Positions 24,113 to 40,101 of a stretch of 64,000 nucleotides of DNA are shown piece after piece. Every line of letters starts with the position of its first letter. The first letter of the stretch is position 1. The notes beneath the pieces were generated by a model. It did not search any database. It was not told the origin of the DNA and saw only the letters and a list, made by a program, of their open reading frames with translations. The DNA is from an uncultured Gemmatimonadaceae bacterium (GTDB lineage: Bacteria > Gemmatimonadota > Gemmatimonadetes > Gemmatimonadales > Gemmatimonadaceae): NCBI GenBank assembly GCA_963740355.1, contig CAVUDW010000002.1, positions 512,001 through 576,000 of the forward strand, written 5' to 3'. Made by a program: the position numbers and the translations under genes.

Positions 24113-26032
24113 GTGACAATTTCCTGGATCGATTGGGTCATCGCGATCGCCAGTATTCTGGTCTGCTTCGTTCCGGCGCTTTTCCTCGCCAAGCGATCCG
24201 CCACGAGCACGACGGAGTTCTTTGCCTCGGGTCGCAGCGTGCCGTGGTGGCTGGCTGGCCTGTCGATGGTGGCGACGACGTTTTCGTCCGACACCCCGAA
24301 CTGGGTGACGGAGCAGGTGCGGCGCTACGGGGTGGCGGGCAACTGGCAGTGGTGGGCCTTCGTGCTCACCGGCCTCGCGACGGTGTTCTTCTTCGCGCGT
24401 CTCTGGCGTCGATCGGGGGTATTGACCGACCTCGAGTTCTATGAGCTCCGCTATTCCGGAAAGTCGGCGTCGGTGGTGCGCGGATTCCGTGCCGTCTATC
24501 TGGGCCTGTTTTTCAACTGCTTCATCATGGGCACCGTTACGCTGGCGGCGTGCAAGATTGCCAACATCCTGTTCGGCATGCCCGCGTGGCAGACGATCCT
24601 GTTTTGCGGTGTGTTGAACGTCGTGTTTGCAGCACACTCCGGCCTGTGGGGCGTGCTGGTGATCGACATGATCCAGTTCTTCATCAAGATGACGGCCGTG
24701 TTTGCGGCGGCATTCTTCTCACTGGTCGAAGTCGGACGCCGGCTCGGTGGCGAGGCCAGCGCCTGGGTTGGGCTCAAGCTGCTGGTCGGCAAGTTGTCGA
24801 CGCTGCAGGTGGTGCAGTCCACTGCAGCCAATGCACAGCCTGTGATGTCTACAGCTGATGGGAGCGGCCAGCCGATCCTCAACATGCTGCCGAACTTCAG
24901 CATGTCCGATTTGGCGCTGATGATCTTCATCATGCCGATCGCGATCAGCTGGTGGGCGAACTGGTATCCTGGCGCCGAGCCAGGCGGCGGATCATACATC
25001 GCGCAGCGCATGCTGGCGTCCAAGTCGGAGAAGGACGCGTTGGGCGGCACCCTGTTCTTCAACGTCGCGCACTATGTGCTGCGACCGTGGCCGTGGATCA
25101 TCACTGCCTTGTGCTCGATCATCGTCTATCCCGATCTGGCATCGATCAAGGCCGCGTTCCCGAATGCCGATGTCTCACTGATCGGGCACGACTCGGCGTT
25201 CCCGGCGATGCTCAAGTTCCTGCCGGTTGGTTTCGTCGGCTTGATGATCGGCGGCCTGCTGGCCGCCAACAGCTCGACGATCCTGACGCACCTGAACTGG
25301 GGCTCGTCATATCTGGTGCACGATTTCTATCGCCGCTTCATCCGTAAGGACGCGTCGGAGACGCACTATGTGAACGTCGGGCGTTTGTGCACGGTGGGCC
25401 TCTACCTGTTCGCGGCGTTACTCAGCCTCACGCTCAGCTCCGCGCAGCAGGCCTTCCAAGTGTTGTTGTCGATCGGCGCCGGTACCGGCCTGCTCTACAT
25501 CGCGCGCTGGTTCTGGTGGCGGGTGTCGGCGTGGTGTGAGATCGTGGCCATGTTCATGTCGCTGGCGACATCGCTGGCTGTCCCGTACTTCATGCCCGGC
25601 GCCAGCTTCGCCACCACCACCATCTGGCAGGTGGGCATCACTACGATCGCTTGGTTGGTCACCGCATACGTCGGGCCCGTGACCGATCGCGCGACTTTGA
25701 TCTCATTCGTGCAGAAGGTAAAGCCGGCCGGGCCTGGCTGGACGGAGATCAGAAAGGCCGCTGGCATTTCTGATGCGGAAGTTGCGCTCGAGAATCGTGT
25801 CGGTGGCGCGTTGGCTGGTTGGATCTCAGGCTGCGTGCTGATCTGGTCCGCACTGTTCGCGATCGGCAACTTCCTCTACGCGCCCGGCGATCCGTCACGC
25901 TGGCCGGCGGCGTGGATGCTGTTGGGCGTGTTCGTCGTGAGCGGGTTGGTCTTGCTGCGCGTGACGAAGCAGTTGTGGGCGGATAGTACTGCGAGTCAGG
26001 TGCGGGAGGATGCGCGGGTAGCGAAGGGGTGA
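24113..26032 (+). CDS. Sodium:solute symporter family protein
   Basis: FFASGRSVPWW, TTFSSDTP, AQRMLASK; multi-TM. Confidence 0.88.
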   Translation: MTISWIDWVIAIASILVCFVPALFLAKRSATSTTEFFASGRSVPWWLAGLSMVATTFSSDTPNWVTEQVRRYGVAGNWQWWAFVLTGLATVFFFARLWRRSGVLTDLEFYELRYSGKSASVVRGFRAVYLGLFFNCFIMGTVTLAACKIANILFGMPAWQTILFCGVLNVVFAAHSGLWGVLVIDMIQFFIKMTAVFAAAFFSLVEVGRRLGGEASAWVGLKLLVGKLSTLQVVQSTAANAQPVMSTADGSGQPILNMLPNFSMSDLALMIFIMPIAISWWANWYPGAEPGGGSYIAQRMLASKSEKDALGGTLFFNVAHYVLRPWPWIITALCSIIVYPDLASIKAAFPNADVSLIGHDSAFPAMLKFLPVGFVGLMIGGLLAANSSTILTHLNWGSSYLVHDFYRRFIRKDASETHYVNVGRLCTVGLYLFAALLSLTLSSAQQAFQVLLSIGAGTGLLYIARWFWWRVSAWCEIVAMFMSLATSLAVPYFMPGASFATTTIWQVGITTIAWLVTAYVGPVTDRATLISFVQKVKPAGPGWTEIRKAAGISDAEVALENRVGGALAGWISGCVLIWSALFAIGNFLYAPGDPSRWPAAWMLLGVFVVSGLVLLRVTKQLWADSTASQVREDARVAKG

Positions 26033-26066
26033 GGTAGCTCAACCCGAACCGTGTCAAGGCATTGAT

Positions 26067-26303
26067 ATGAGAAATGCGATTTTCTTGCCAGGCAGTTTGA
26101 TCGCGAAAGCGGATGTCTTGGCGGCGCGCGTCGGAATGTCGAGATCACAGCTCTGTGAGGCTGCGATTGTTGCATTTCTCGCAAGATCCAGTGACGCTGG
26201 TGTCACGGCCGCGTTGAACCGGGTGTACTCGATGCCGTATAAGCCAGACGCATTGCTTGCCAAGGCGACTCGTGCTGCATTGCGACGGTCAGAATGGACC
26301 TGA
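26067..26303 (+). CDS. ChpI-like ribbon-helix-helix antitoxin (no adjacent toxin)
   Basis: AIFLP...LAARVGMSRSQL...VTAALNRVY...RRSEW. Confidence 0.6.
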   Translation: MRNAIFLPGSLIAKADVLAARVGMSRSQLCEAAIVAFLARSSDAGVTAALNRVYSMPYKPDALLAKATRAALRRSEWT

Positions 26304-26378
26304 AGGCAGAGACTTTCGACTGGTAAAGAGGCAGTTCCGCTCGTGATTACGGAACCGCTTTCGATCAGCGCAGATTGC

Positions 26379-27227
26379 CTATTCCTTTTTCGGAAGTTCG
26401 CTGAGGATCTGCAGGAGTGCCAGTACCAGTCTTGGTGCGCCTCGGTATCCATCCAGCCCGCCGGAGGCAAGCTCAGATGCCATGGCGTGCATCAGACCGT
26501 ACGCCGGGCCGTCGCCTTCGTAGATCGTCTGGTGAAGTAATTCGAGATTGATCGAGATTTCAGTGCGTCCGTTCTCGCGCAGCCGTCCATATGCTTCCAG
26601 CGCGTCGCGCCAGACCGGATCTCGCGCCCAGTTTTCGGCGGATACGCTACTCGAGTGACGCATGGCCACTGGGGCTTTTTCCTCGACACTGTGAGCTTGC
26701 ACTTCAGCTGGCTCAGCCTGACTCTGCAGTGGGTAGATCTCGAACTCTTTGTCATTCTTTTCGGAGACGAAAAACACGAATGATCGGTGAATGCCTCTGA
26801 CCACGTGCGGTTTGAAGCGGTTCGCTTTCCGAAGACTGGCCCAGTCGTATCGCCAGACTTTTCTCGGAGAGTAGTTATCGTTGAGGCTGACAAAGACCAA
26901 ACCGTCTGGGCCGTCTTCGCTATCAGCTGTTGGAATCGCACTTGTTTTCTGCCACCCTGACGCGCGTCCGCGTCTGGTTTTCACGGAAAGTCTGCCGCCA
27001 TCAGTCGCAGCCAAGTCATGTTCGTGCGACTCATCGAGCAGAGCGCCTCCAATGATCACCTTGGCGTACATCTCACCGAGCGCCGCGACTTACTCAGACC
27101 CCTTGAAGTTCTTCTCTGGCGCGTATCGCTGGATTGCATGTCGGACGCGCTCCTGAAACGCCTCCTGTCCCGAAAATAGCTGTGTGAATTCTGCTACGAC
27201 CTGCTCGATCCGGTTCCCTGTGTTCAT
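26379..27227 (-). pseudogene. Putative PD-(D/E)XK-type nuclease interrupted by an in-frame TAA at 27090-27092
   Basis: ORFs 27090-27320 and 26379-27071 share a frame: KGSE*VAALGEMYAK...HEHDL...SVKTR. Confidence 0.5.
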
Positions 27228-27255
27228 TGGTGAGATTTTCCCCTTTGAGCGGTTG

Positions 27256-28593
27256 TCATGCGCACGAGTGAACGCTGGTGCTAGAGTGGTAGAGTCCGGA
27301 TAGTCGACCACGTGCCACACGGAACTGACTTCGCTTCTTCACTTTGGGCGACGTAGAAACATCCTCGACTTTGATTCCGGGGTCGTAGTAGATGGAACCG
27401 TCGGCAATCGCACGCATCGCAAGCGCGTAGTCGGTTCCTTCGGCGAGAAGTACTTTCTCTCCGTATCGATAGCCGATGTCCGGTGTGTCCCGCTTTATCG
27501 CGGGAACGAAGACGGCCCGCGAGTGCTTTCGAGTCCAGTGCGAAAGTAGCCCTGCAAAGGTCCACGATGCGGCGACTTCACCGTCATCCGTCAGCAATAC
27601 CACTGCTCCGTCAGATCGAGTAATTTTCCCCGAAGGCGCATCGTAGCCATCCATTCGCATCGTCAGGCCGGTCGCGGCGCATCTGATGCCGGTACGGTGA
27701 ATGCCACCAAAATTGATCCGGTCGTCACGACCGCGCTTGTCCGCGTATCCAAAACGCTGCAAGAATTCGATAGGCTCAAGAACTGAGTATGCTCCCCCGT
27801 TTGGCTCAGGGGTCATCAGAGTCACTGCACCCGTCCCCTCGCGATCGAAGGACGCGACCGTGTGGGCTTTCACCTCCCATCCATCAAAGTCCGGCTCAGA
27901 CCGTCCGTTCGCGGTGATTCCGAGCTCCGATTCCAGCGTGACACCGACGCAGTTCCGGGCAACACAAGGAATGCGCTCACCAGCCTTGGTCAGACGCCAT
28001 CCTTGAATCCAACCTTCCCGCGAAATCCTGCAGAGGGCGGAAAGCAGCCGGCCGCGCGAGTCGGCGAGGGAGGTCCCCGAGTCGAGAGGTACGCGCATCA
28101 GCACGCCAACCTCATCAAGTGAATGAAGCGCAGCGAGCTCTCGGGCGATCGCGGAATCCTCCGGAACTGCATGGCCGATCACACGTCGGTCGACCGTCAC
28201 CCCCAAAAGCAGGACGCGACCTACGGCGCGGCCAGCAAGCAGGTCGTTCGGCGAGAGGGCGGCGCCCTTCAGAAATCCTGAAAGCCGGACTTCCGGATAC
28301 TGAGGGTAAAGAATCAGCCGAGCTTCTGGTGCTGGGCAGACCTCGCCAGAGGCAGTCAGCCAGCTGAGTCGTAGCGGTGCCTTGAAGATGGGGGTGTCGT
28401 GGGTGCCGCTCGTGGTGGCTTCGGGCGGTTCTGTCGGAATGACGTTGATGACCCTGAAGTCACCCCCGAGGTAAATCTGATTCTTGCTGTTGTCGTTTGG
28501 ACTCAGCCGTTTCGCGAACAACTGTCGGACACCCTGGTGGCGCAGGGCGGCAGTGAGCTGCGCGAGTGACATTGATGAGTCGTGAATAGACAT
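27256..28593 (-). CDS. MvaI/BcnI family restriction endonuclease
   Basis: NDNSKNQIYLG, YPQYPEVRLSGF, GVTLESELG...EPDFDGWEVK, KRSQFR. Confidence 0.82.
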   Translation of the reverse strand: MSIHDSSMSLAQLTAALRHQGVRQLFAKRLSPNDNSKNQIYLGGDFRVINVIPTEPPEATTSGTHDTPIFKAPLRLSWLTASGEVCPAPEARLILYPQYPEVRLSGFLKGAALSPNDLLAGRAVGRVLLLGVTVDRRVIGHAVPEDSAIARELAALHSLDEVGVLMRVPLDSGTSLADSRGRLLSALCRISREGWIQGWRLTKAGERIPCVARNCVGVTLESELGITANGRSEPDFDGWEVKAHTVASFDREGTGAVTLMTPEPNGGAYSVLEPIEFLQRFGYADKRGRDDRINFGGIHRTGIRCAATGLTMRMDGYDAPSGKITRSDGAVVLLTDDGEVAASWTFAGLLSHWTRKHSRAVFVPAIKRDTPDIGYRYGEKVLLAEGTDYALAMRAIADGSIYYDPGIKVEDVSTSPKVKKRSQFRVARGRLSGLYHSSTSVHSCA

Positions 28594-28596
28594 CGC

Positions 28597-28649
28597 TTGA
28601 CGGCGGGAGAAAAAGCGGACATTATGACGCCATGCAATATACCGAACAA
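28597..28649. promoter_or_regulatory. Overlapping divergent sigma70-type promoters for the MTase and endonuclease
   Basis: + strand TTGACG(28597)-N17-CATTAT(28620)-N6-ATG(28632); - strand TTGTTC-N17-CATAAT. Confidence 0.5.
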
Positions 28650-29903
28650 ACCCCGGCGCTCCTTCAGCAGGCACTGATGCGCTACTCGCAGGGCGAGATC
28701 GCGTCGATGTTGGATGTCAACGTCCGTCAGGTCAGGCGGTGGATCGTCGGCGAGAGCAAGCCGAAGTCGGTTTACCTCAGCCTGCTACAGAAGGAGCTAT
28801 CGCCGGAGCCGATCCTTCGCCAGCCCAGCTTCCAGTTCATTGATTTGTTCGCGGGCATCGGTGGTCTCCGTCGCGGTTTCGAGTCAATGGGCGGCGAGTG
28901 TGTCTTTACCAGCGAATGGGACAAGAACTCCGTCCGCACGTACTCAGACAACTTCCCGGATGGGCATGACATCTGGGGCGACATCACGCAGATCGCACCG
29001 GAAGCCATTCCCGAGCACGACATTCTGCTCGGCGGCTTTCCCTGTCAGCCTTTCAGCCTCGCTGGAGTCAGCAAGAAAAACAGTCTTGGCCGAGCCCATG
29101 GCTTTCTCGACAAAGCACAGGGTACGCTGTTCTTCAACGTGCTCAGCATTTTGAAGGCAAAGCGCCCTGCGGGCTTCTTGCTAGAGAACGTGAAGAACCT
29201 GAAGAGTCACGACGGCGGTCGGACTTACCAGGTAATCAGGGGGGCTCTCGAGGAACTGGGGTATCAAGTAGAAGACCGCATCATTGATTCTCGGCCTTGG
29301 GTGCCGCAGCGCCGTGAACGCATCTTTCTGGTGGGCTTCCGGAAACACGTCCAATTCTCATTCGATGAGATGGCGGTACCGAAGCAGGGGCCGACGCTTG
29401 GCTCGATTCTGCATTCGAAGGACGAGGAACCGGAAGGCCACTTCACCAAGACTGTTCGCGGAAAGACGGTCGTGGATGAGCGGTATACGCTGTCCGACCA
29501 TCTCTGGAAATACTTGCAGGACTATGCCGCCAAGCACCGAGCCGCCGGCAATGGCTTCGGCTGCAGTGTTTTCGATGCGAATGACGTCGCTCGGACGTTG
29601 TCGGCTCGGTACCACAAAGACGGCAGCGAGATTCTGATTAAGCAGCACAAGAAGAACCCGCGTCGCCTCACCCCGCGCGAATGCGCACGTCTCATGGGTT
29701 TCGATCGCGTAGGTCGTGAGCCGCACATCATCCCGGAGACCATGTCGGACACCCAGGCGTACCGTCAGTTCGGGAACTCTGTGGTAGTGCCGGTCGTCGA
29801 GGAGATTGCGAAGATCATGGTGCCAAGGATCGTAAGCCCTGAGCGCTATAAGCCCATTCCACGACTACAGCTGGAGTTCCTTGCCACGGGCACCGAGGGC
29901 TGA
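28632..29903 (+). CDS. dcm: DNA (cytosine-5)-methyltransferase with N-terminal HTH
   Basis: FIDLFAGIGG, GFPCQPFS, ENV, QRRERI, TLSARYHKDGSE, QFGNSV; HTH SQGEIASMLDVNVRQVRRW. Confidence 0.93.
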   Translation: MQYTEQTPALLQQALMRYSQGEIASMLDVNVRQVRRWIVGESKPKSVYLSLLQKELSPEPILRQPSFQFIDLFAGIGGLRRGFESMGGECVFTSEWDKNSVRTYSDNFPDGHDIWGDITQIAPEAIPEHDILLGGFPCQPFSLAGVSKKNSLGRAHGFLDKAQGTLFFNVLSILKAKRPAGFLLENVKNLKSHDGGRTYQVIRGALEELGYQVEDRIIDSRPWVPQRRERIFLVGFRKHVQFSFDEMAVPKQGPTLGSILHSKDEEPEGHFTKTVRGKTVVDERYTLSDHLWKYLQDYAAKHRAAGNGFGCSVFDANDVARTLSARYHKDGSEILIKQHKKNPRRLTPRECARLMGFDRVGREPHIIPETMSDTQAYRQFGNSVVVPVVEEIAKIMVPRIVSPERYKPIPRLQLEFLATGTEG

Positions 29904-30312
29904 TCCGCCGGTGTCCGCAGCGCGATCGCGCAATATGGCGGCGATACGCGGAAAGGACACAAAGCCAGAAATGCTCGTGCGGAGCTGGGTGCATCGACGC
30001 GGATTCAGATTCAGGCTACACGCGAAGGGAATGCCTGGTAGCCCTGACCTTGTACTTGCGAGACACCGTACCGTCGTCTTCGTTCACGGCTGCTTCTGGC
30101 ACTCGCACGGCTGCTCGAACTCCGTCGTCCCCCAGACTCGACGCGAGTTCTGGGTAGAGAAGCTCGGCCGCAACGTGGCGCGTGATGCCAAGAATTTTAG
30201 AGAGTTAACAGAACTCGGATGGCGCGTGTTTGTTGTATGGGAGTGCGACCTGAGAAAGCATCCAGAGCGCACGCTCTCGCGGCTGACCGCGCGCCTCTCG
30301 AACACTGACTGA
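29881..30312 (+). CDS. vsr: Very short patch repair endonuclease
   Basis: RSRNMAAIRGKDTKPE, PGSPD, FVHGCFWH, VWEC. Confidence 0.93.
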   Translation: MPRAPRADPPVSAARSRNMAAIRGKDTKPEMLVRSWVHRRGFRFRLHAKGMPGSPDLVLARHRTVVFVHGCFWHSHGCSNSVVPQTRREFWVEKLGRNVARDAKNFRELTELGWRVFVVWECDLRKHPERTLSRLTARLSNTD

Positions 30313-30323
30313 TCCGTATTCAG

Positions 30324-31043
30324 CTACTCCGCCTTTCGAAATCTCTCGAATTCCTTTGGCAGAAGCTTGAGCAGTCTATCCATCGGCATCGCGTAGATAT
30401 CGAAGGTGAGATCTAGCTGCATAAGAACTTCGGCAAGCCGGCGCGGGGAGCCGCGCCCTGCGCCACCAGAGCCTTTCTTCCTACGACCAGTCGACTGGTC
30501 AACGTAGAGAGAGTTCGAGAGCGACAAAACCGTGGCAGAAGTGGCGAGTTCCATTCGAGACGCGATTTGCTCGTAGATCTCGCCTGGCTTGTGCAGGCTG
30601 CCGCCAAGGAGCGCACGTGCCCGTTCGGGATTGTCGCGATGCGCCGTGAGGATCTGCCACGGGCCTGCCAACAGATGCCGGTAGTACGTGCGATAATCCG
30701 TGCCAGTAGGTACGTATCGAGCGCGCTGGCCCAGCTTTCTGACGCCGTTGCTTGTCGGGCATACTTGGTCGAAGTACACGAGAGTGAGCCACGCCCACAT
30801 GCCAGAATCCGCCTGAACACGAATATCGGGAGCGTTGCCCATCAGGCTGAGGGAATACGTTGCCCAATCAAAACGCGTCTCAAACACACGCGGCTCTGCG
30901 ATGTCGCCATAGCCAGTTGACTCAACCAGCGCGCCTGGATTCACGAGCTCTTCTGGCACGCTTGTCGCTCTCTCATTCTGAATCGCATCGAGCCAGCGAT
31001 TCATTTCGGCAATGCCTTTAGGACGCAGTCTGTTTAGGCTCAC
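30324..31043 (-). CDS. Hypothetical protein, third gene of the GHKL operon
   Basis: 239-aa ORF with a 4-bp overlap with the upstream gene; WAWLTLVYF and YYRHLLAGPW segments. Confidence 0.75.
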   Translation of the reverse strand: MSLNRLRPKGIAEMNRWLDAIQNERATSVPEELVNPGALVESTGYGDIAEPRVFETRFDWATYSLSLMGNAPDIRVQADSGMWAWLTLVYFDQVCPTSNGVRKLGQRARYVPTGTDYRTYYRHLLAGPWQILTAHRDNPERARALLGGSLHKPGEIYEQIASRMELATSATVLSLSNSLYVDQSTGRRKKGSGGAGRGSPRRLAEVLMQLDLTFDIYAMPMDRLLKLLPKEFERFRKAE

Positions 31044-31801
31044 GCATCACTTCCATCAGTCAGTGTAGCGCCGTACTTCTCGGCGAATCGCTGTTGGCGG
31101 CAGAAGGCTTTCACTGCATCCTCAACCCAGTCCGCTCGGGCATCGTCAGAGGAGTCGGCATCAGGAACGTCACATACTCCAGGCAAACGAATGGCGAACG
31201 CTGTCCAGTCCGAATGCCAGTCCTTTTCGTCGGAGTCAAGATCTTCGAGCGCCTTGGACAGTATGCGTCGAAATAGCTCAGGATACACGAGGCTCCGAAA
31301 CGCAACCGACTGGACCGCCTGCCTCCAATCACCAAGGCGATTGTTCACCACAAGCGTTGGTCCGGCTCGAGTTTCGTCGAAGTCCAGCCGCCACGTTGCT
31401 TCATCAAGATCGTCGCCACGCGTGTTCAACAAGGACCGGCGCCCTGCATCGCGCGGGTCGGCGCTCGTCACCGGAACGCGGTCGGCCTCAGCCCAGATTC
31501 GACCGTCTTCGCGGCCTCCACTCAGGATCTTGACCCTGAATTGAACTCCGTCTGGGTCACCGAACGCGTCAAGCCTGCACGCGGTCGCCGCTCGGACAAA
31601 GCCAACCGTTCCGAATTCATACCTCCGCCAAGTCGTCTGGCGGTAGGCTTCAACGACTACCAAGCACTCCGACGGTAGCGCGTAGCTCGACAGGTTAATC
31701 TTCGCATCGAACGCAGCACTGTCTGCATCGCGAACGATTGTAATTCCAACGTCCGCGCGCTCAATTCGCTTCCGGTTCGTCCAGTTAAGTCGCTGGGGCA
31801 T
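31040..31801 (-). CDS. Hypothetical protein, second gene of the GHKL operon
   Basis: 253-aa ORF overlapping both neighbours; beta-rich N-half and helical Trp-rich C-half. Confidence 0.75.
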   Translation of the reverse strand: MPQRLNWTNRKRIERADVGITIVRDADSAAFDAKINLSSYALPSECLVVVEAYRQTTWRRYEFGTVGFVRAATACRLDAFGDPDGVQFRVKILSGGREDGRIWAEADRVPVTSADPRDAGRRSLLNTRGDDLDEATWRLDFDETRAGPTLVVNNRLGDWRQAVQSVAFRSLVYPELFRRILSKALEDLDSDEKDWHSDWTAFAIRLPGVCDVPDADSSDDARADWVEDAVKAFCRQQRFAEKYGATLTDGSDA

Positions 31802-33713
31802 CGAGCTCCCCGGTGGTAGCGATTCTGAGTGCCAGATCGCGGTTCATGTCAAACCCGATGATGGAGACACGGAAGTCCGGATCCGTAACCTCGTATCTCA
31901 CTTTGTTCTCGCTTACAGTGAGCGCGCGGAGCCCATGGATATCAGTTGGATCGCCGACGCCGTCTCGCATGAGCAGGAAATCGGCAGGATCGTACTTCGC
32001 AAACGGATCACCGCGCCTGACGTCGTAAGCAACCGAAATCTCGAGCTCGGCCGGGATCTGAGCACCTTCGGCGCCCGCAGTGATCGTGAATCCTCCCCGC
32101 ACCTTGGTCAGGCTGAAACGACGCGGCTTCGCGGGAGGGATGACCACGGGCGGGGGATCATTCTCGCCCTTCTTGCGTGGCGTTGGTGAGGGGCGCACCG
32201 GTCGCGAAGGATCTGGGGCCTCTGGGAGCGAGAAAAAGTCCGCAAGAATGTCCGGAGCGCTGTCGTCCTCATTCTCTTCGATCATTCGAACGAGCTTCTG
32301 AACGCTCGAGCGCACGAAGTTGAGATAACCCGGCCCAAACTTGTACTTGTCCTTAAAGTTTCCGGTGTCGGGCCGCCACTCGGTATGCGCCGGATTCTCG
32401 GCATCGCCCAGGAGGTCGGCAAGTGCCTTATCCTTGCACACGACGAGCGATCGAACGCCACGCGCCTTTTCGCCCTTCGCCTCACTGACTATCACGCCCT
32501 CCCGGACAAAGACGGGCCGGCCGCTATCGTACGCCGCGTCCCGAATCAGGAATACGTCGAAGTGCGAGTGACGTTCGTCTGCGAACTTGGGCCGAACAAC
32601 AATCGGAACCCTCAGCGCAACTGGATCGCCAGCGTCAAGCGAGGCTCGCACCCGAGTCTTGGACTCTTCATCGAGCATTGCTTCGTTCCACTTTGGGCTA
32701 TTGTTCTGGTCGGGAGGACCACAAAGGACAGCGGACCGCCCCGCATCCGAGAAGGCGAACCGAGTAAGGTTGACCAGCGGCTCCAGTTCTCGTCGATCAT
32801 CCGCGTCGAGCCGTGATATCTCTCCGTCGAGTGAATCACGATTCAGCGTCATAGTACCCGCTGGATCCGTGATCTCAATTTCTAGTTCGCCAGCCATAAG
32901 GCAGTAGAACCAGTCACGAATTGCCGCGTCGACCAAAGCTGCCTTCGTAATGTCGTCATCATACCAAGGCACGACCAACGACAGTCCTGGTTCATCGCGC
33001 CGCTTAAGGCGGAAAGTCTCGCGGAATTTTGCGATGAGGTCGCGATCGTCCGACGGCGCCGTAATCATGCCATCTGCGAGAACGACCTTCGATCCGAGAT
33101 AACCATCGGGAACGTGATAGCCCTCTGACGTCCTGTGCGACTTCAAGATGCATCGGCCCAGCAGGAGCGACTGGCGATCGCTTTCGCGAATAGTCCAACC
33201 GACAAACGCACTGCCTTTGCTAGCGCGAGGGAAGACGAATTTCCCGATCCCCCACCGTCCGCGACGGCCCCCGTCCGATTTGGCATTTTCGCCCTCGGCG
33301 CGGAAGAAAGCGAAGAACCCATTTCGCGTACCCTCGATCCGGTGCCACTGGAGCGGGTCGCCTTCGAGCCCCGTCGTTCCGAAATCCTCAAAGGTCAGGA
33401 ACTGACAAGGCTTCGTAATGTCGGGACGCCGGTTGGGCTGGATGCCATTGCCTGCAGCATCCAGATGCGGTCGCAATTTGCCAAAGAGGGCCGACGCTTT
33501 GGTCGCTGACGCTGCCCACTCTGGCCCAGAGATCAGGATCCGGACCTTGGCCATTCCGCTGCCTACGCGCGCATCCATCGTATTTTGGACGCCTTCCCGA
33601 ACTAACGCTTCCGCAGAATTTCGGATTGCTTCCGTGGCGAAGAACTCACCGCTGATCGGGTCGCGGGTGGTGTCGTCGGGCTGCTTCTTTTTAAAAGACC
33701 AATGAGCCGACAT
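31785..33713 (-). CDS. Divergent GHKL (MORC/Hsp90/MutL-fold) ATPase domain protein
   Basis: REGVQNTMDA (ExxxNxxDA), EDFGTTGL (DxG) and GRWGIGK (GxxGxG) motifs; Pro-rich linker and C-terminal beta domain. Confidence 0.72.
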   Translation of the reverse strand: MSAHWSFKKKQPDDTTRDPISGEFFATEAIRNSAEALVREGVQNTMDARVGSGMAKVRILISGPEWAASATKASALFGKLRPHLDAAGNGIQPNRRPDITKPCQFLTFEDFGTTGLEGDPLQWHRIEGTRNGFFAFFRAEGENAKSDGGRRGRWGIGKFVFPRASKGSAFVGWTIRESDRQSLLLGRCILKSHRTSEGYHVPDGYLGSKVVLADGMITAPSDDRDLIAKFRETFRLKRRDEPGLSLVVPWYDDDITKAALVDAAIRDWFYCLMAGELEIEITDPAGTMTLNRDSLDGEISRLDADDRRELEPLVNLTRFAFSDAGRSAVLCGPPDQNNSPKWNEAMLDEESKTRVRASLDAGDPVALRVPIVVRPKFADERHSHFDVFLIRDAAYDSGRPVFVREGVIVSEAKGEKARGVRSLVVCKDKALADLLGDAENPAHTEWRPDTGNFKDKYKFGPGYLNFVRSSVQKLVRMIEENEDDSAPDILADFFSLPEAPDPSRPVRPSPTPRKKGENDPPPVVIPPAKPRRFSLTKVRGGFTITAGAEGAQIPAELEISVAYDVRRGDPFAKYDPADFLLMRDGVGDPTDIHGLRALTVSENKVRYEVTDPDFRVSIIGFDMNRDLALRIATTGELDAPAT

Positions 33714-33851
33714 TGCGAAATTTGACTTCGTTTGCGTGCGTGCAGCTGTGAACGACCGGATGATGGTCGCTGTACACAATCAGCTGGAGGGAAGGCATGC
33801 CGTCGCAGACGGTTACACAGACGCTACTCTGCGATCATTTCTGAGCTACGC

Positions 33852-34076
33852 TCAAAGTACCTTGCGCTTGACCTTCATTCGCTGCTTCTGTCCTCCCGCA
33901 TTGTGTCGCGCCGAAATTATCAAGTGTGCGGTATGAGCAAATTCTGTTGCAGTCTGGGCGCCGTTCACCGCAGATCGATTCAGATACTCTAGGATCTCGT
34001 CCGGTGTAAGCGCTTGAGCGCCGCTCAACAGCGGATCCAGGACGAAGAAGTTGCGAATCCTTCGAATTAGCGTCAC
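33852..34076 (-). CDS. Small hypothetical protein
   Basis: 74 aa; GTGA overlap with the upstream stop and AAAGGGGG RBS. Confidence 0.45.
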   Translation of the reverse strand: MTLIRRIRNFFVLDPLLSGAQALTPDEILEYLNRSAVNGAQTATEFAHTAHLIISARHNAGGQKQRMKVKRKVL

Positions 34077-35026
34077 GTTCCCCCCTTTATGAGTTGACCG
34101 TTCGCAGTCGAAATTGTGAGTCTATCGAATAGCGTGGAATATACCTGCGCCAGATGTTCACTGATTGCTTTCATGCTGTCAACGTGCCTTCCATCCAATA
34201 CGCGGCCCGAACGGGATGTCAGAAATAGCAATCCGATCAAATCCTTCCGATCGCCCATCCAACCGACGAGAGGAGCGACTGCAAGTGCCTTAATGTCGTC
34301 GGGAAAAAGCCTATCGTTCTGAGTCATGACATACGCACCTTTCCGAGTCGCTGCAGCCAGATCGGGAATGAAAATGACGCCTTGGCATGGCACGTCTCCA
34401 GATCTAAAGAAGTTGGGAATGCCTTGATCAATCGGGATGGGCTCGCTTGTCGCGGATCGCGCTCGATTCAGTTTGCTGGAGCGTCCGAAGGTCACATACT
34501 GCGTGATCGTGCTTGGCCGCGATTTGTCGACAACCGCAATTCGGACGGCGCAGCCCGTCGTTTCGTCACCCGCCAGCCGACTGAAATGATTGGCAATCGA
34601 CTCACAGATTCCGTTAGAGTAGTCCAGAAGATGTTTGCGCTCATGCGGTGATATTTCAGCCTGTGCGCGAGGCGCCGCTGACTGGCGTTCGAACAAGTCT
34701 ACGATCATATCTCGCGAAGCAGACATGATGAGATGCATGTCTTTCTTCAGGGCGACAGAGCGTCGTGTGCGATTTCGAATCAGAAAGAAAACTGCGCTCA
34801 AAACCGTAATGGCAACTATGAAGCTGAATACGAACAAGTAGCGAGTGGGGAGCGTCACAGCCGCAGGCAACGAATCTGGCCACCAAAAGGGAGTGCCGAG
34901 TACAGGAAGGCCCAAAATTGCTGGGACCACCTGCGCACGCAGCCGGCTGAAAAATCCGCGCATCCCCACATTCCACGAACTCTCCCCGTCAATCCAGTGC
35001 GTTACATCATTCTTAGCAGGCATCAA
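34073..35026 (-). CDS. Membrane protein with N-terminal TM helices and a C-terminal GAF-like domain
   Basis: Two hydrophobic segments; IPDL...IKALAVAPL...LIGLLFLTS...AISEHLA GAF-like pattern; start uncertain. Confidence 0.6.
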   Translation of the reverse strand: MMPAKNDVTHWIDGESSWNVGMRGFFSRLRAQVVPAILGLPVLGTPFWWPDSLPAAVTLPTRYLFVFSFIVAITVLSAVFFLIRNRTRRSVALKKDMHLIMSASRDMIVDLFERQSAAPRAQAEISPHERKHLLDYSNGICESIANHFSRLAGDETTGCAVRIAVVDKSRPSTITQYVTFGRSSKLNRARSATSEPIPIDQGIPNFFRSGDVPCQGVIFIPDLAAATRKGAYVMTQNDRLFPDDIKALAVAPLVGWMGDRKDLIGLLFLTSRSGRVLDGRHVDSMKAISEHLAQVYSTLFDRLTISTANGQLIKGGT

Positions 35027-35189
35027 GTGTTTCTAGGTCCGAGCGGCGCGTAAAGCTTCGAGTTCGGGGCATAGTAGCCGGAAGTAAACCGGAACTGCTG
35101 CTCGAAAGAGCGCGGCCGCACACGGGACGTCAAGTGTCCAGAGTGCTACACCGCGACAGTAGCGGCGCGGGACGCAGCTGTCGAACTAG

Positions 35190-36443
35190 TCCGTGTAGGT
35201 TACTGCAAGCGCCCAGGGAAGCTTGGAAATGACCCCAAGTAGCGGCAAGCGCTCATGTGGCCACGCCGAAACGCAGGATCGTGCGCATCTGCACGAGGTT
35301 GTACGCGGCGTTCGTGGAGGCGAACACCCTTCGCCCGTGGCGTACCCCCGGTGGTGCAGTTTCCGTAGCCCGCCAATGGTCTTGGCCCACCCGCACACTT
35401 CCTCGACGAGCTTCCGCTTCACCTGACTGATCGCGTAGCCGGCATGGCGCGTCGTGATCATCGATGGCACTCTTGGCCTCGCGGGAATGGAGGTTATGCG
35501 CGACCGGCGGGGTGATGCAACACGCGCGCGTGGCCGCGACAAAGGCTGGACGGTCATAGTTTTTTTCTCCGCTCAGCGTCAATCGTCGCTGCCGGGCGGG
35601 TATGCATGCCGAGCATGGCGACGGCCGCATCCGGTTCCGCGTCGTAGCTTGGCGCGCAGACATCCGTCGCCACGATCAGCCCATGCCGGTTGTCAATCGG
35701 CACACTGCCGAGATCCCCGAGAATTCTCGCCGTCCTGTTGCGCTTGCGAACAAAGGCGCGCCTCGGGAACCGGCATCGACTGATGGCTCGCGCTCGCGCG
35801 CTTTTCCTTCCGGATATTGAACGTCGGATTCTTCGGATCGCCATCCGACGGGAGCGGAGTCGGATCGTCCTACGGCCGCAGACTCTTGCGACTCGCCCAC
35901 TAGTCGAGCAGCATCTCGGAGACGGTGAAGTCCTCGTGCGGGAGCAACCGTCGCTCGTCCGCGGCACGCGGCAATTCCGCCATAAAGGCGTCGGCGATGT
36001 GCCCCGCGATCAGGCGATTCCGATTTCTCCTGAACACCGCCGGGCCCCAAGTGGCGTCATCGGGACTAGTGCCGACGAACCAGCGGAACAGTAGGTTGCA
36101 ATTGAGTTGCTCCATCAGCTGCCGCTCGCTCGGCACGGGAGACGGCACCTGCAGGAGTGGGGCGCGGAGCAAGCGCTCGGGAGGGATCGACGGGCGGCAA
36201 ATCTTCGAGTAGAGCGCCTCGAATTTGGGCGACTGCGCCCCTTAGGATCGGGTTGACGAGCGCATGGATCGTCCGGAGAGGATGGTCGGAGGGAATGCGG
36301 TCTTCGGCCCACACATAGCTGGAAAAGGTCGGCTGCGTCGCGTCGGCCCACTCATGGCTCGGTGCCAGAAAGAGTCGACAACAACTGCTGGAAGCCTCAG
36401 GCCAGCGCGGCGGAAATCGGGCAACTTTTTCAGCAACCTGCTA
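35190..36443 (-). mobile_element. Decayed IS5-family insertion sequence (frameshifted transposase)
   Basis: Fragments EDRIPSDHPLR, SERQLMEQLNCNLLFRWFVG and RKLVEEVCGWAKTIGGLRK in different frames; IR-like TAGCAGGTTGCTGAAAAA (- strand) at 36443-36426; other end degenerate. Confidence 0.8.
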
Positions 36444-38219
36444 AGACAGTGCTTTTCTGCGATCGAAGAAGTGCCGAAGTAGAATCACTGGTATCGGTTC
36501 GACTCCGAGTGTTTCAGCGCTCAGCTCATGAGTGACTCCATCGAAAACTTGTGCTGAGGGAACTGCAAGAACTAGCCCCGCGTCTTTCAGCTTTTGCTCA
36601 TCCGCATCCCACGCAATCAACAAGTGAATATCCTCGAGATACTTCTTTTCTGTCGCCAGATCCGCGATCAGTGAATCAAGCGAATACTTGAACTCAATAA
36701 GCGTTCTCAGCGGAGCTTGGCCGTCATTCAGGTAGTGCGTGTGAGCATCGTAGCGGTGGCCATATCCAGTCGTCAGCGTTCGGTATCGCGTGAGAATGCC
36801 GGCGCCTATCAACTCGTGAAAAATTGCGGCCACGGCGGCTTCCTGAGCGTCTGGGGCTTTTCCGTAGCGCAACTTCGGCTCCGCAAGGTCGACCAAGCCC
36901 TCTGCTCGCGCCCACTCAGCGGCGATGATGCTCTGCCGTTCCGCCTTCGAGATTTTTGGAGCAGATGGCTCAATTGTTTCGTCACCCTGATATCGCGCAA
37001 TTTCCTCGAACTTCAGGAACATGTCCCTTACCGCAGCCTGAAGCTTTCGCACCTGAGTGTAGTGCAAAGATTTCCGCCCGAGATCAAATTTCAGCTTCTT
37101 TGACTCGACCATGAAGAAGCAGCGCTTGTAGTACGCCGGGTATCTGCCTCCCTCAGGTATTGGGAGACTCATAGCCGTGGGCATTCCCTTCGTGGCAACA
37201 AAGACACCGCTTCTGAAGAGAACGTCGTCACTGCTGGTATCTGTCGGTTCCGGAAGCAGAAGCGTGTCTCGGGACAGGATTTTGAAGGCGTCGTTCTCGG
37301 GGAACATCACGCCATATACGCAAACCTCCCAAGACCCCTCTTTCACTGTTTGCGTGTGCCAAACAGTCTTCGATCCAACAAGCTTCTTTCTAAGTGCTAC
37401 GTCCGACATTGGCACAAAAGCGTTGCGTACGTCTTGGAGAGCAATCCGATTGCTTGTCTTGACGAGAAGATGTGGGGCGTGAAAGTGAGCTTCAGTTGAC
37501 TCCAGAGAGTTTTCGCCTGGTAAGGCCAAGTCAATGTAGGCATCGAACTCAGATAGCGTCTCCGGATCGTACAAGTTCGTGGTTACGCCAACCGCGGTGC
37601 GGGTGCGAATGAGGTACCGTAGCTCGCTCTTGGTCATCGCGAAAAGATTGCGGTCATTCGACGACGGCATAACATGCGATACTGTTATCCGAGAGAACGA
37701 GTTCATCGGATACGCCTTGTCGCAGATAGCAATTGACGCTGGGTAGGCGCGTTCTTCAGAGAAGGGTGCGTAGACTGGGCGGGGAACGCTGGAGTCGTCT
37801 GTTGCGAGCCATTGCTGGGCATTTGCAACCCTTCCGCCAGCTATCGCACTGCCAACGGTACGGCTTTCAATTTCAAATTCGTTTCCTGAAAAGATTGCAT
37901 ACGTCAGTCCGACACCCTTCTCTCCAACCTCCTTCGTGTCACCGTCTTTATCGCCTCCACCAGGTGCTAGTACTTCTTGGATCTTGCTTGCGGGAATTCC
38001 GATACCGTTATCTGTGACTTGAATCAGTGATTTGCTGGCGTCGATCCTTACGTGAACGAAGAAGGGTCCAGTTACGCCGCCGTCCTTCGCACGGGTAATC
38101 GCGTCACGCGAATTCTGGAGCATTTCTGCCAACAGATCCCAGTAGTGGTGGTAGCTGTCCCTAAGGCCGCGAAGTTCTTTCTTGATCGCGCGATCGTTTC
38201 GCTCATTCAGAAAATCCAT
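36441..38219 (-). CDS. GHKL ATPase fused to a C-terminal PD-(D/E)XK-like nuclease domain
   Basis: EMLQNSRDA, DNGIGI and GEKGVGL; C-terminal EAAVAAIF...YDA...IEFKY...LLIAW. Confidence 0.78.
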   Translation of the reverse strand: MDFLNERNDRAIKKELRGLRDSYHHYWDLLAEMLQNSRDAITRAKDGGVTGPFFVHVRIDASKSLIQVTDNGIGIPASKIQEVLAPGGGDKDGDTKEVGEKGVGLTYAIFSGNEFEIESRTVGSAIAGGRVANAQQWLATDDSSVPRPVYAPFSEERAYPASIAICDKAYPMNSFSRITVSHVMPSSNDRNLFAMTKSELRYLIRTRTAVGVTTNLYDPETLSEFDAYIDLALPGENSLESTEAHFHAPHLLVKTSNRIALQDVRNAFVPMSDVALRKKLVGSKTVWHTQTVKEGSWEVCVYGVMFPENDAFKILSRDTLLLPEPTDTSSDDVLFRSGVFVATKGMPTAMSLPIPEGGRYPAYYKRCFFMVESKKLKFDLGRKSLHYTQVRKLQAAVRDMFLKFEEIARYQGDETIEPSAPKISKAERQSIIAAEWARAEGLVDLAEPKLRYGKAPDAQEAAVAAIFHELIGAGILTRYRTLTTGYGHRYDAHTHYLNDGQAPLRTLIEFKYSLDSLIADLATEKKYLEDIHLLIAWDADEQKLKDAGLVLAVPSAQVFDGVTHELSAETLGVEPIPVILLRHFFDRRKALS

Positions 38220-38374
38220 CTTGGTCCTCGAGAAGTTATGCCGTGCGGTCGTTGATTGTATGATAACAATACGAAGGGCGTCGGGCGGTAGAAACTATGG
38301 AACGCAGCTTTGCGGGTCGCGACTACTCAGGTTCGAGATAATCTGGCCGACGGGCTAGATCTGCGTCACGGGCG

Positions 38375-39496
38375 TCACCCGAGCATCCTAGCCAACGGAA
38401 CGGCGCCGAACGTGCCTATATTGTCACGCGCGCCAACCGCCAGCGCACCAGTGCCTCGGAAGCGAAGGAGCGTCGCCACATGCGCGGAGAAGGGGGGAAG
38501 TACCGCCGCCAGCGCATGCCCGCGCCCAACCAGCGCTCGCACCGTTTGCATCAACGCCGAGCAATCCCCGACCTCGAACGACACCACCTGTCCATCCGCC
38601 CCAAACACAGGCAGACACCCACCGCCATCAGATGAGACAGTCACCCGATCCACTGGCGCCCCCGATTCCCAGTAGATCTCCAGCGCATCCGCCGCCGAAT
38701 ACGCATCCTCGCCGTCCGCGACTGGAAAATCCGTGATGTCGATGTAACACCCGAACTCCTTCACCAACGCGATCGCTTCGTGAAAGAGCGCTTTCCGTCG
38801 ATTCACATGCGTCGGATTGAACACCCGCGGCGGAATCTCCGAGACCGTCAGCGCCTCGCGAATCAGCTCCAGCCCGCGCAGCCCGTCGCCCACGTGCAGG
38901 TGCAGGATCCCCGCCTTGCCCGTCATCAATCCGGCCACGTGTGCATCGGCCGCGATCCGCAGCAGTTCCTGCAGCGTCGGCTGTGATGATCGATGATCCG
39001 AGATCGCCACTTCGCCCACGCCAATGATGCAATCGATGTTCACTATGTCGCTGCGCACCGAGCCGGTGAGCGTCGTCAGCGGCAGGTGATACCCACCGGT
39101 GTGGCACCAGGCATTGATCCCCTGTGCCCGTAGTGCACGCACACCGGCCACCAGTTCGGCGGTGGATCGCGTCACATCGTCGGTGCCCAGCACCCCGACC
39201 ACCGTCGTCACGCCGGCCTTCCGATACGACTCCGCCAGCGGTGCTGGCACCTTCGACGCCGGCCCCGCCTCACCACCACCACCGGTGATGTGGCAATGCC
39301 CATCGATCAGCCCCGGAATCACCCGCCGCCCTTCGAGGTCGATCTCCTCCACACCCAGGTACGGCGGAAACGACGGCCGCTCCGTCCCCATGTAGAGAAT
39401 CGTGCCGCCACCAATCAGGATGTGCTGGTGCCCCAGGTGCTCCGGCGCGTACACATCGCCGTTGAGCAGGAGAGTCATTGAACTCGTCGTCGTCAT
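38375..39496 (-). CDS. iadA: Isoaspartyl dipeptidase (beta-aspartyl peptidase)
   Basis: DGHCH, GGGGEAG, GVLGTD, TGGYH, AISDHRSSQP, PTH, SSDG. Confidence 0.9.
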   Translation of the reverse strand: MTTTSSMTLLLNGDVYAPEHLGHQHILIGGGTILYMGTERPSFPPYLGVEEIDLEGRRVIPGLIDGHCHITGGGGEAGPASKVPAPLAESYRKAGVTTVVGVLGTDDVTRSTAELVAGVRALRAQGINAWCHTGGYHLPLTTLTGSVRSDIVNIDCIIGVGEVAISDHRSSQPTLQELLRIAADAHVAGLMTGKAGILHLHVGDGLRGLELIREALTVSEIPPRVFNPTHVNRRKALFHEAIALVKEFGCYIDITDFPVADGEDAYSAADALEIYWESGAPVDRVTVSSDGGGCLPVFGADGQVVSFEVGDCSALMQTVRALVGRGHALAAVLPPFSAHVATLLRFRGTGALAVGARDNIGTFGAVPLARMLG

Positions 39497-39552
39497 GCGC
39501 CCAAGCCTACCGCTCCCGCCGCGCCGCCACCACCGGCACGAGCGGTCGCTGT

Positions 39553-39978
39553 CGCTTCGCCAGCGCCGTTAACAGCAATGGGGGCGGGAGGCCACGGAGC
39601 TCACGGAGTAGCTCCCGATGCCACCACTCGCGCTTCGCTACCGCCGTTAACAGCGATGGGGGCGGGAGGCCACGGAGCTCACGGAGTAGCTACGGTTGCC
39701 ACCTGCCGTGCAGCGCGATCCATCCTTGACGAGGAAAAGAGGGAACAGCGGAATAGCAGTCCCCGTCAATCTCGATGGCGGCGAAACGCGACGCCTCGTG
39801 AATGGAGCTACTCCGTGAGCTCCGTGGCCTCCCGCCCCCCTGCAGTTCAGGATGCATCGCTCGCGCGTGGAGTCCTCGTGTCCTACCGCCCACCTGCAGT
39901 TCACACTGCCCGCGAAACGCGACGCCTCGTGAATGGAGCTACTCCGTGAGCTCCGTGGCCTCCCGCCCCCCTGCAGTT
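39553..39978. repeat. Intergenic array with two direct and two inverted copies of a 34-bp core
   Basis: GGGGGCGGGAGGCCACGGAGCTCACGGAGTAGCT at 39580 and 39658; reverse complement at 39806 and 39937. Confidence 0.92.
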
Positions 39979-40101
39979 GACGATGTCTCGCTCGCGCATG
40001 GAGCCCTCGTGCCGGCGCGGATGTAGTCCGGACACAGGCATGCCAACACTAGTCAGCCGCTCCGGCTCCCTGATCTCGCCCGTCCCCCGTACCTTGCGAC
40101 C

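Follow-up and report, generated by a model that had tools for sequence, protein, structure and literature searches.

A conserved three-gene cassette led by a divergent GHKL ATPase and linked to C5-cytosine methylases, a candidate methylation-linked defence module

GHKL ATPases encoded together with cytosine methylases and Vsr endonucleases were predicted to be components of restriction-modification (R-M) systems (Iyer, Abhiman & Aravind 2008, PMC2292703), and an ExxxH motif was given in the same work as the mark of the paraMORC2 family. Operons of this GHKL-methylase kind were still called a proposal in the 2026 preprint on Tiamat, and we found no experimental test of their multi-gene forms in the literature searched. 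Two GHKL proteins have been validated in defence, namely VcSduA, a Shedu protein of the paraMORC3 type (PMC12137116), and Tiamat (2026 preprint), while the PDC systems are presented as 145 candidates with no phenotype test, chosen as being embedded in defence systems (Payne et al. 2024 preprint). Here we analysed a stretch of 64,000 nucleotides (the window) from an uncultured Gemmatimonadaceae bacterium (assembly GCA_963740355.1, contig CAVUDW010000002.1, positions 512,001 to 576,000), which contains a cassette of three genes, called here genes 1, 2 and 3, coding for a divergent GHKL ATPase and two partner proteins without a known family, next to genes for a C5-cytosine methyltransferase (Dcm), a Vsr endonuclease and a restriction endonuclease of the MvaI/BcnI family (Table 1). 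The reading that we favour, and that we hold to be moderately probable, is that the trio supplies the effector, or restriction-like, half of a paraMORC-type defence system linked to methylation.

The genes of the trio are tightly packed, as both coordinates and sequence show, with an overlap of 17 bp between genes 1 and 2 and of 4 bp (GTGA) between genes 2 and 3, and only 11 bp separate the stop codon of gene 3 from that of the convergent vsr. Gene 1 starts at an ATG (33713) that coincides with the start of its relatives, its open reading frame (ORF) being open further to a TTG at 33779. In the AlphaFold model of its product (mean predicted local distance difference test score, pLDDT, 80.3; predicted template modelling score, pTM, 0.70), residues ~11-490 form a GHKL domain with a transducer, residues 481-522 a Pro-rich disordered linker and residues 528-642 a beta-sandwich. 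Comparison of this model with the PDB using Foldseek yielded 184 matches at E <= 1e-3 and, among the matches listed, all were GHL ATPases, with topo VI-B as the best (E 1.5e-10) followed by Hsp90 and GyrB. A structure search independent of Foldseek (VIA wide) returned GHKL modules in all of its top 29 rows (Z 16.2 to 9.4), including SMCHD1 (Z 16.2, 319 residues aligned), GRP94 (15.0), MORC3 (13.6), MutL (13.5) and MORC2 (12.5), and many of the VIA alignments covered residues 11-490 of the model, that is, the ATP-binding domain together with the transducer. When the Foldseek list was rescored with VIA, 356 chains reached Z >= 8, among them Hsc82 (17.4), SMCHD1 (16.2), MORC3 (15.5), topo VI-B (15.3) and MutL (13.4), and no GHL family was singled out by structure as the closest to gene 1.

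The residues expected of a Bergerat fold are in place. An alignment of 26 relatives presents motifs I to IV in canonical order, as E40xxxN44xxD47A, D110-F-G112-T-T-G115, G152-x-W-G155-x-G157-K and T174, respectively; across 69 distinct relatives the glycines G115, G152, G155 and G157 never vary, and E40, N44, D47 and D110 each occur in at least 93%. Towards the end of the transducer, and within the stretch aligned to transducers, lies the sequence E439-N-P-A-H443, in which E439 and H443 are invariant in the same 69 relatives; with D437 just before it, this could be a metal site, judging from residue conservation. The linker is rich in proline (14 in residues 481-535) and of low pLDDT, and the tail (528-642), all-beta in the model, has only weak beta-sandwich matches (VIA Z 5-5.7). 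Searches based on sequence profiles recovered much less. Gene 1 matched no Pfam family at E <= 0.1 and no NCBIfam or PHROG family, the 26 relatives scanned singly against Pfam gave no HATPase_c or HATPase_c_3 match at E <= 1 and only scattered single weak ones, the family profile had no match among PDB sequences at E <= 1, and an ESM Atlas search found unnamed clusters only. Alignment by hhalign with a genuine HATPase_c_3 family, which we built from a second GHKL protein of the window, reached a probability of 3-18% with motif I alone aligned, the remaining Bergerat motifs aligning colinearly only at a loose setting. We accept the GHKL fold because the model matches GHL modules, sequence profiles being unable to prove it; the sequence alone is insufficient, and it is the predicted structure that clearly settles the matter. 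Gene 1 is therefore predicted to code for a dimerising GHKL and transducer ATPase of the MutL, MORC, SMCHD1, Hsp90 and topo VI-B kind.

The two partners, putatively coupled to it in translation, proved harder to place. Gene 2 has no match in Pfam, NCBIfam, PADLOC, PHROG or the PDB sequences, and a search of 1.84 billion proteins with its profile returned 2209 representative clusters at E <= 1e-3, of which 1117 reached E <= 1e-30, the members of the family being nearly all stand-alone proteins of ~250 amino acids. The single longer match, a public protein of 389 amino acids (P0176), is a chimera that joins the first ~120 residues of a gene 1 relative to a full gene 2, probably through a deletion or an assembly artefact. 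The product of gene 3 is mostly helical in a confident model (pLDDT 92.7, pTM 0.89), to which neither the solved structures of the PDB (Foldseek best E 2.4; VIA wide best Z 4.1) nor the predicted structures of viral proteins (BFVD best E 1.3) offer a match. Its sequence matches nothing in Pfam, NCBIfam or PHROG, its profile gave four weak matches among PDB sequences (best E 0.019) that we take as chance, and no longer proteins with a fused gene 3 were found, in a search that is itself weak evidence. Neither gene matches a PADLOC model even at E <= 10, and the same is true of their relatives (0/17). The possibility that genes 2 and 3 are relatives of each other was ruled out (hhalign probability 0.8%). 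Our results agree with what the initial annotation, made from the sequence, had read from the locus, namely three overlapping minus-strand genes ending 11 bp from the vsr stop, neighbours of the Dcm, Vsr and MvaI families, Bergerat motifs and a GHKL fold in gene 1 with a Pro-rich linker and a beta-rich tail, and two partners with no family. The loose likeness that it had seen between gene 3 and DUF6339 was not borne out, as none of 30 gene 3 relatives scanned singly matched that family at E <= 1, and the Pfam matches obtained were scattered, single and weak.

Proteins related to gene 1 are abundant: of 8000 candidates that a word-based search scored, 1837 reached E <= 1e-3, all of them nameless. 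A scan of one genome per species identified 335 places encoding a gene 1 relative, from which we kept 76 loci, and it is to these that the locus counts given below refer. They represent 14 named phyla, with Planctomycetota (18), Pseudomonadota (12), Verrucomicrobiota (11) and Acidobacteriota (7) in the lead. In 60 of the 68 informative loci (those with at least 1600 bp after gene 1), genes 2 and 3 follow gene 1 in the same order and on the same strand; five have gene 2 but no gene 3 and three have neither, gene 2 thus following gene 1 in 65/68. Under the script's assignment of start codons, 55 of the 60 trios show an overlap between genes 1 and 2, and 41 show one between genes 2 and 3. Pairwise identities of the three proteins correlate with one another (Spearman 0.71-0.80), and the trio is inherited and evolves as one unit. 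Of the four findings that the initial annotation had named as speaking against its reading, three were looked for, namely homologues that do not occur together, a match to an already named system and a gene 1 without the GHKL fold, and none of these was found, the only library match being a distant one between gene 1 and the PDC-M33A candidate of PADLOC (E 3.1e-9).

Two variations on the trio were also observed. In a gene 1 tree of 70 rows (quick IQ-TREE), seven rows from Planctomycetota (L050, L054, L061, L067, L073, L075 and L076) form a clade without gene 3, three of these loci being also without gene 2. The ATPase motifs are retained there, as seen by eye in the translations of L054 and L076, and these loci may represent either a reduced form of the cassette or copies in the course of decay. 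In 15 loci an optional fourth gene, absent from the window, stands immediately upstream of gene 1 and falls into two clusters, one of ~385 amino acids in six loci (for example L071:5767-6981 and L045:5814-7004) and one of ~215 amino acids in nine (for example L046:5577-6332 and L010:5842-6471). It has no Pfam or PADLOC match and, by eye, a winged-helix-like C-terminus, and it may serve the cassette as a regulator or as a subunit that binds DNA. A gene for a PIN-domain (VapC-like) protein occupies the position directly upstream of gene 1 in five loci (L005:6565-6975, L006:1298-1696, L008:2089-2499, L023:6567-6980 and L069:6572-6991), preceded in L023 by a MazE-type antitoxin gene.

Clustering of all the ORFs of the trio loci identified just two sizeable recurrent neighbour families, a C5-cytosine methylase in 41/76 loci and Vsr in 31/76, each of them present in the window as well; the identity of the methylases was confirmed by Pfam on a sample of the neighbour ORFs. 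At 40% identity or more the adjoining methylases group into clusters of 18, 12 and 8 members and three small ones, and the Dcm partners are drawn from at least three lineages. Their placement with respect to the trio also varies: some immediately precede it, some immediately follow it and others are convergent with it, and dcm and trio often share an operon. The 8-member cluster (550-615 amino acids) lies directly upstream of gene 1 on the same strand, the 18-member cluster mostly right after gene 3 or convergent with vsr, and in L004 and L011 vsr comes after gene 3, which places the trio between dcm and vsr. The 12-member cluster contains the enzyme of the window (54-60% identical) and is accompanied by a type II endonuclease. 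An EcoRII-family enzyme takes the place of the MvaI enzyme in 10/76 loci, and a homologue of MvaI itself was seen in one (L013) besides the window. Among the 27 Dcm-linked loci with neither EcoRII nor MvaI, a Pfam scan of 111 flanking ORFs found no type II endonuclease family, the nearest nuclease-like flanking genes being HNH_2 (L025), ResIII-PLD (L017), AIPR (L016) and DUF559 (L007). The correlation of identities between trio and Dcm is only 0.26 (Spearman), pointing to methylases having been exchanged while the trio stayed together. In the genome of the window (5.45 Mb) a single PF00145 gene was found, which is the dcm beside the trio, and we estimate at ~0.3% the chance that a random 17-kb stretch would contain it.

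The distribution of Dcm is likewise structured along the gene 1 tree. Dcm is present throughout one clade of 23 rows (23/23), and the Dcm label changes 10 times over the tree, compared with an average of 23.5 when the labels are shuffled, some of the rows scored as having no Dcm outside a 13-row clade considered below lying on short contigs. The seven Planctomycetota rows without gene 3 are also without Dcm. The initial annotation had offered the trio as either an R-M accessory or an independent defence system. The first half of that alternative is strengthened because the link is to C5 methylases in general; the tie to MvaI in particular, found in 1/76 loci, did not stand.

The cassette of the window is horizontally mobile and borne on an island of low guanine-plus-cytosine (GC) content, at whose borders neither a tRNA gene nor convincing direct repeats were seen. 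A search of 40 related genomes, 19 of them belonging to its own genus, recovered no gene 1. Elsewhere, genes that we assign, by our own judgement of Pfam families, to defence, toxin-antitoxin modules or mobile elements flank the trio in 12 of 21 loci without Dcm (85 of the 142 listed ORFs scanned), with Cas3, Mrr, AbiEi/AbiEii, SIR2-TIR, RES, SNF2, IS66 and ISL3 transposases and a serine recombinase. Genes of this sort flank 13 of 27 Dcm-linked loci, where the families are PIN (the five loci with this gene directly upstream of gene 1), HEPN_Swt1-Hsp70 with a UvrD-like helicase (two loci), AIPR, DndB, Fic and integrases. Around the other loci the neighbours are housekeeping or unassigned genes.

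Several observations weigh against the trio being the effector of a methylation-linked system. None of the three proteins has a domain that can be recognised as a nuclease, a helicase or a methyl reader (by Pfam, NCBIfam and PADLOC, and by the fold search in the case of gene 3), the support for a GHKL fold at the sequence level is weak, as shown by the Pfam and hhalign results above, and about half of the loci are flanked by housekeeping or unassigned genes only. Dcm already has an enzyme of the MvaI or EcoRII type beside it at the locus of the window and at 11 others, and because of this classical endonuclease Dcm may there simply belong to the R-M system; in the window, the trio shares the only Dcm of the genome with the MvaI-family type II enzyme. 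Moreover, 13 rows (Pseudomonadota, Thermodesulfobacteriota and Nitrospinota) form a well-supported clade in which Dcm adjoins the trio in 0/13. Ten genomes with a Dcm-less trio locus have PF00145 elsewhere in six cases and none found in four, a rate (6/10) similar to that of control genomes (9/14), the completeness of the ten genomes being not known. The Dcm-free clade and the genomes without PF00145 imply that the module is not strictly dependent on 5-methylcytosine (m5C), and we conclude that it is usually, not always, tied to it. A strict model of obligatory R-M is weakened by this same clade and by the 4/10 genomes. In two Dcm-less loci a different methylase abuts the trio, N6_N4_Mtase after gene 3 (L049) and HsdM before gene 1 (L068).

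The 13-row clade and the four genomes without PF00145 are equally what speaks for a self-sufficient, methylation-independent defence system, which would sit near Dcm-Vsr and R-M genes since defence genes cluster and embed in one another. Such a system would also fit the free swapping of the Dcm lineages seen in the low trio-Dcm correlation, the presence of Cas3, Mrr, AbiE, SIR2-TIR, AIPR and HEPN-Hsp70 beside the trio, and the way in which the PDC candidates were picked, which was likewise by embedding (Payne et al. 2024 preprint). We nevertheless regard it as unlikely, because mere clustering sits poorly with one class of enzymes, C5 methylases of at least three lineages, occurring in 41/76 loci while no other neighbour family comes near the frequency of Dcm. 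Furthermore, Dcm is often in the same operon as the trio, with genes that overlap or nearly abut, including the dcm-trio-vsr arrangements, and the single Dcm of the window genome adjoins the trio.

The frequency of Vsr (31/76 loci) raises the alternative that the cassette is a repair accessory of Dcm-Vsr, with gene 1 acting as a MutL-like matchmaker that aids Vsr at the T:G mismatches arising from m5C deamination and travelling with mobile methylases. MutL is known to work with Vsr (Monastiriakos 2004 as cited in Iyer 2008, PMC2292703), and gene 1 resembles the N-terminal module of MutL (Z 13.5), although it is no nearer to MutL than to Hsp90, SMCHD1 or MORC. We consider a repair role highly improbable, given that Dcm occurs without a detectable Vsr despite flanking DNA being available (for example in L014, L016, L025, L036 and L040), that a whole clade has neither Dcm nor Vsr, and that in most loci Vsr is placed as an appendage of dcm and not of the trio. 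The cassette is, in addition, island-borne and was not found in the 40 relatives.

A further alternative starts from the fact that a nuclease is recognisable in none of the three proteins. In it, gene 1 would be an ATP-driven clamp of the MORC or SMCHD1 type that, together with two guide proteins of new folds, senses the lack of m5C and compacts or traps foreign DNA without cutting it. SMCHD1 and MORC3 are chromatin-compacting ATPases, and SMCHD1 (Z 16.2) and MORC3 (Z 15.5) are among the best structural neighbours of gene 1. A nuclease could still be hidden in gene 2 or in the unmatched fold of gene 3, and the invariant E439xxxH443 with D437 might coordinate a metal, and we rate such a silencer as quite improbable. 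Were it true, it would be a prokaryotic counterpart, perhaps a forerunner, of the eukaryotic epigenetic silencing by MORC and SMCHD1.

Returning to the reading of the trio as the effector half of a methylation-linked system, its gene order and overlaps, GHKL fold, co-inheritance, Dcm linkage and island context are directly established, and a function in defence is what we infer. GHL ATPases close a clamp by ATP-driven N-terminal dimerisation (Iyer 2008, PMC2292703; Tiamat preprint) and MutL is a matchmaker for MutH, Vsr and UvrD (Iyer 2008, PMC2292703), and because of these known behaviours we propose the following mechanism. Upon ATP binding, the dimer of gene 1 would close around DNA while its tethered beta-sandwich or its transducer holds genes 2 and 3. 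Host DNA would be known as self by the m5C that the adjacent Dcm deposits, and on unmarked incoming DNA the complex would recruit or activate an attack, for which the candidates are the orphan folds of genes 2 and 3 or the D437/E439/H443 site of gene 1. This attack might consist of cleavage or of blocking by clamping, and in the Dcm-free clade self might be told apart by other means or by a methylase encoded elsewhere. Common as the cassette is, neither Pfam nor NCBIfam has a model for the trio. Its minimal form is clean, comprising the trio and Dcm with or without Vsr, and at least one of its proteins is confidently folded without a structural relative, which makes it a tractable case for asking how GHKL clamps distinguish methylated from unmethylated DNA and what serves as effector where no nuclease is recognisable. 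The methylase-free clade provides a natural, built-in comparison.

Among the other features of the window, the neighbours of the trio carry the domains of a type II R-M system with Vsr (PF00145, PF15515 and PF03852 in Pfam), and the MvaI/BcnI-family enzyme, which has an additional N-terminal region of 212 amino acids without a Pfam match, is probably the type II partner of the dcm. MvaI itself pairs with an N4-cytosine methylase, and methylation of the Dcm type is not known to block MvaI. The enzyme of the window may hence have a different sensitivity or specificity, because it is paired with a C5 and not with an N4 methylase. From base composition, 35.7 CCWGG sites would be expected in the island and 196.9 in the remainder of the window; the 14 and 105 counted, respectively, are about half of that, a crude estimate that leaves dinucleotide and codon bias uncorrected. 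The island also codes for a second GHKL protein, with weak PADLOC matches to TmtA (Tiamat) and 111 homologues at E <= 1e-10. Its C-terminal part, in which D491 and F510 are invariant, the latter within a conserved 'VIEFKY' consensus, looks from these residues like a PD-(D/E)xK nuclease in a paraMORC3-like architecture, with no Pfam match to DUF4263 or DUF3883. Between this gene and the upstream neighbour of the trio, several broken and overlapping ORFs suggest a decayed insertion sequence, one of them having an N-terminal pattern that we take to be that of IS5-type transposases. Two more island genes (317 and 230 amino acids) have no match in Pfam, NCBIfam, PADLOC or PHROG and no homologue in the 76 trio loci. 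Just past the island the same peptide strings (for example '...GAGGHGAHGVAP...') recur several times in ORFs of both strands, which suggests a short interspersed DNA repeat.

Table 1. Positions of the cassette and of the other features of the window discussed in the text
Feature	Position	Strand	Description	Basis
Gene 1	31785..33713	-	642-aa GHL-type ATPase	ORF, model, motifs
Gene 2	31040..31801	-	253-aa partner protein, family-less	ORF
Gene 3	30324..31043	-	239-aa partner protein, GTG start	ORF
vsr	29881..30312	+	Very-short-patch repair endonuclease	Pfam Vsr E 8.4e-27; PADLOC Vsr 3.3e-39
dcm	28632..29903	+	C5-cytosine DNA methyltransferase, N-terminal helix-turn-helix	Pfam DNA_methylase E 4.4e-78
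Restriction endonuclease gene	27256..28674	-	MvaI/BcnI family	Pfam MvaI_BcnI E 1.3e-35, residues 213-462 of 472
Low-GC island	26000..38300	.	Island carrying the cassette	GC 0.52-0.63 vs 0.61-0.67 elsewhere in window
Second GHKL gene	36441..38219	-	592-aa GHKL protein	Pfam HATPase_c_3 E 5.9e-7 and HATPase_c
Broken ORFs	35186..36351	both	Suggested decayed insertion sequence	
ORF within the broken region	35900..36172	-	N-terminal pattern presumably of IS5-type transposases	
Island gene	34073..35026	-	317 aa	Hydrophobic N-terminal stretch by eye
Island gene	26379..27071	-	230 aa	
Repeated peptide strings	~39480..40030	both	Suggested short interspersed DNA repeat	

How the cassette relates to the described systems can now be stated. 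With paraMORC it shares the GHKL domain with an S5-type transducer, neighbourhoods containing cytosine methylases and Vsr-family enzymes, and a patchy distribution that resembles lateral transfer, as far as paraMORC is described in the relevant passages of Iyer 2008 (PMC2292703). The neighbourhood typical of paraMORC is seen around the trio in the counts of Dcm (41/76), Vsr (31/76), EcoRII (10/76) and MvaI (1/76), plus the window, and the ExxxH by which those passages distinguish paraMORC2 is present in gene 1 as E439 and H443, invariant in 69 relatives. Unlike paraMORC, gene 1 has no Pfam match to HATPase_c or HATPase_c_3. Moreover, paraMORC2 is described there as mainly cyanobacterial and Gram-positive, whereas the trio loci belong mainly to Planctomycetota, Pseudomonadota, Verrucomicrobiota and Acidobacteriota, and the trio has a fixed pair of orphan partners of which the same passages make no mention, a comparison made by description only (PMC2292703). 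As for the PDC candidates, all 18 other gene 1 relatives scanned also match PDC-M33A (E 1e-10 to 4e-26), whose model of 627 positions is similar in length to gene 1, the match falling mostly in the N-terminal half (~positions 3-290). The PDC-M33 system is not matched in all its components, however, gene 1 matching distantly and genes 2 and 3 matching no model, which agrees with the initial annotation in that no named system was recognised. The string 'PDC-M33' did not appear in the literature searched, and exact-word searches returned no description of this trio.

The solved GHL modules of Hsp90, SMCHD1, MORC2/3/4, MutL, topo VI-B and GyrB have the same two-domain module as residues 11-490 of gene 1 (Z 17.4 to 13), including an N-terminal strap-like segment, but they are 8-13% identical to it in sequence and do not have its Pro-rich linker, its beta-sandwich or its two partners. 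In VcSduA and Tiamat, according to the accounts cited above, the GHKL ATPase is needed for anti-phage activity, the genes lie in defence islands and methyltransferases are often nearby. Both carry a PD-(D/E)xK nuclease in the same chain, whereas gene 1 has none and is accompanied by two separate orphan proteins. What sets the cassette apart is the lack of a recognisable nuclease together with an ATPase invisible to Pfam, a fixed pair of orphan partners and a beta-sandwich tethered to the ATPase.

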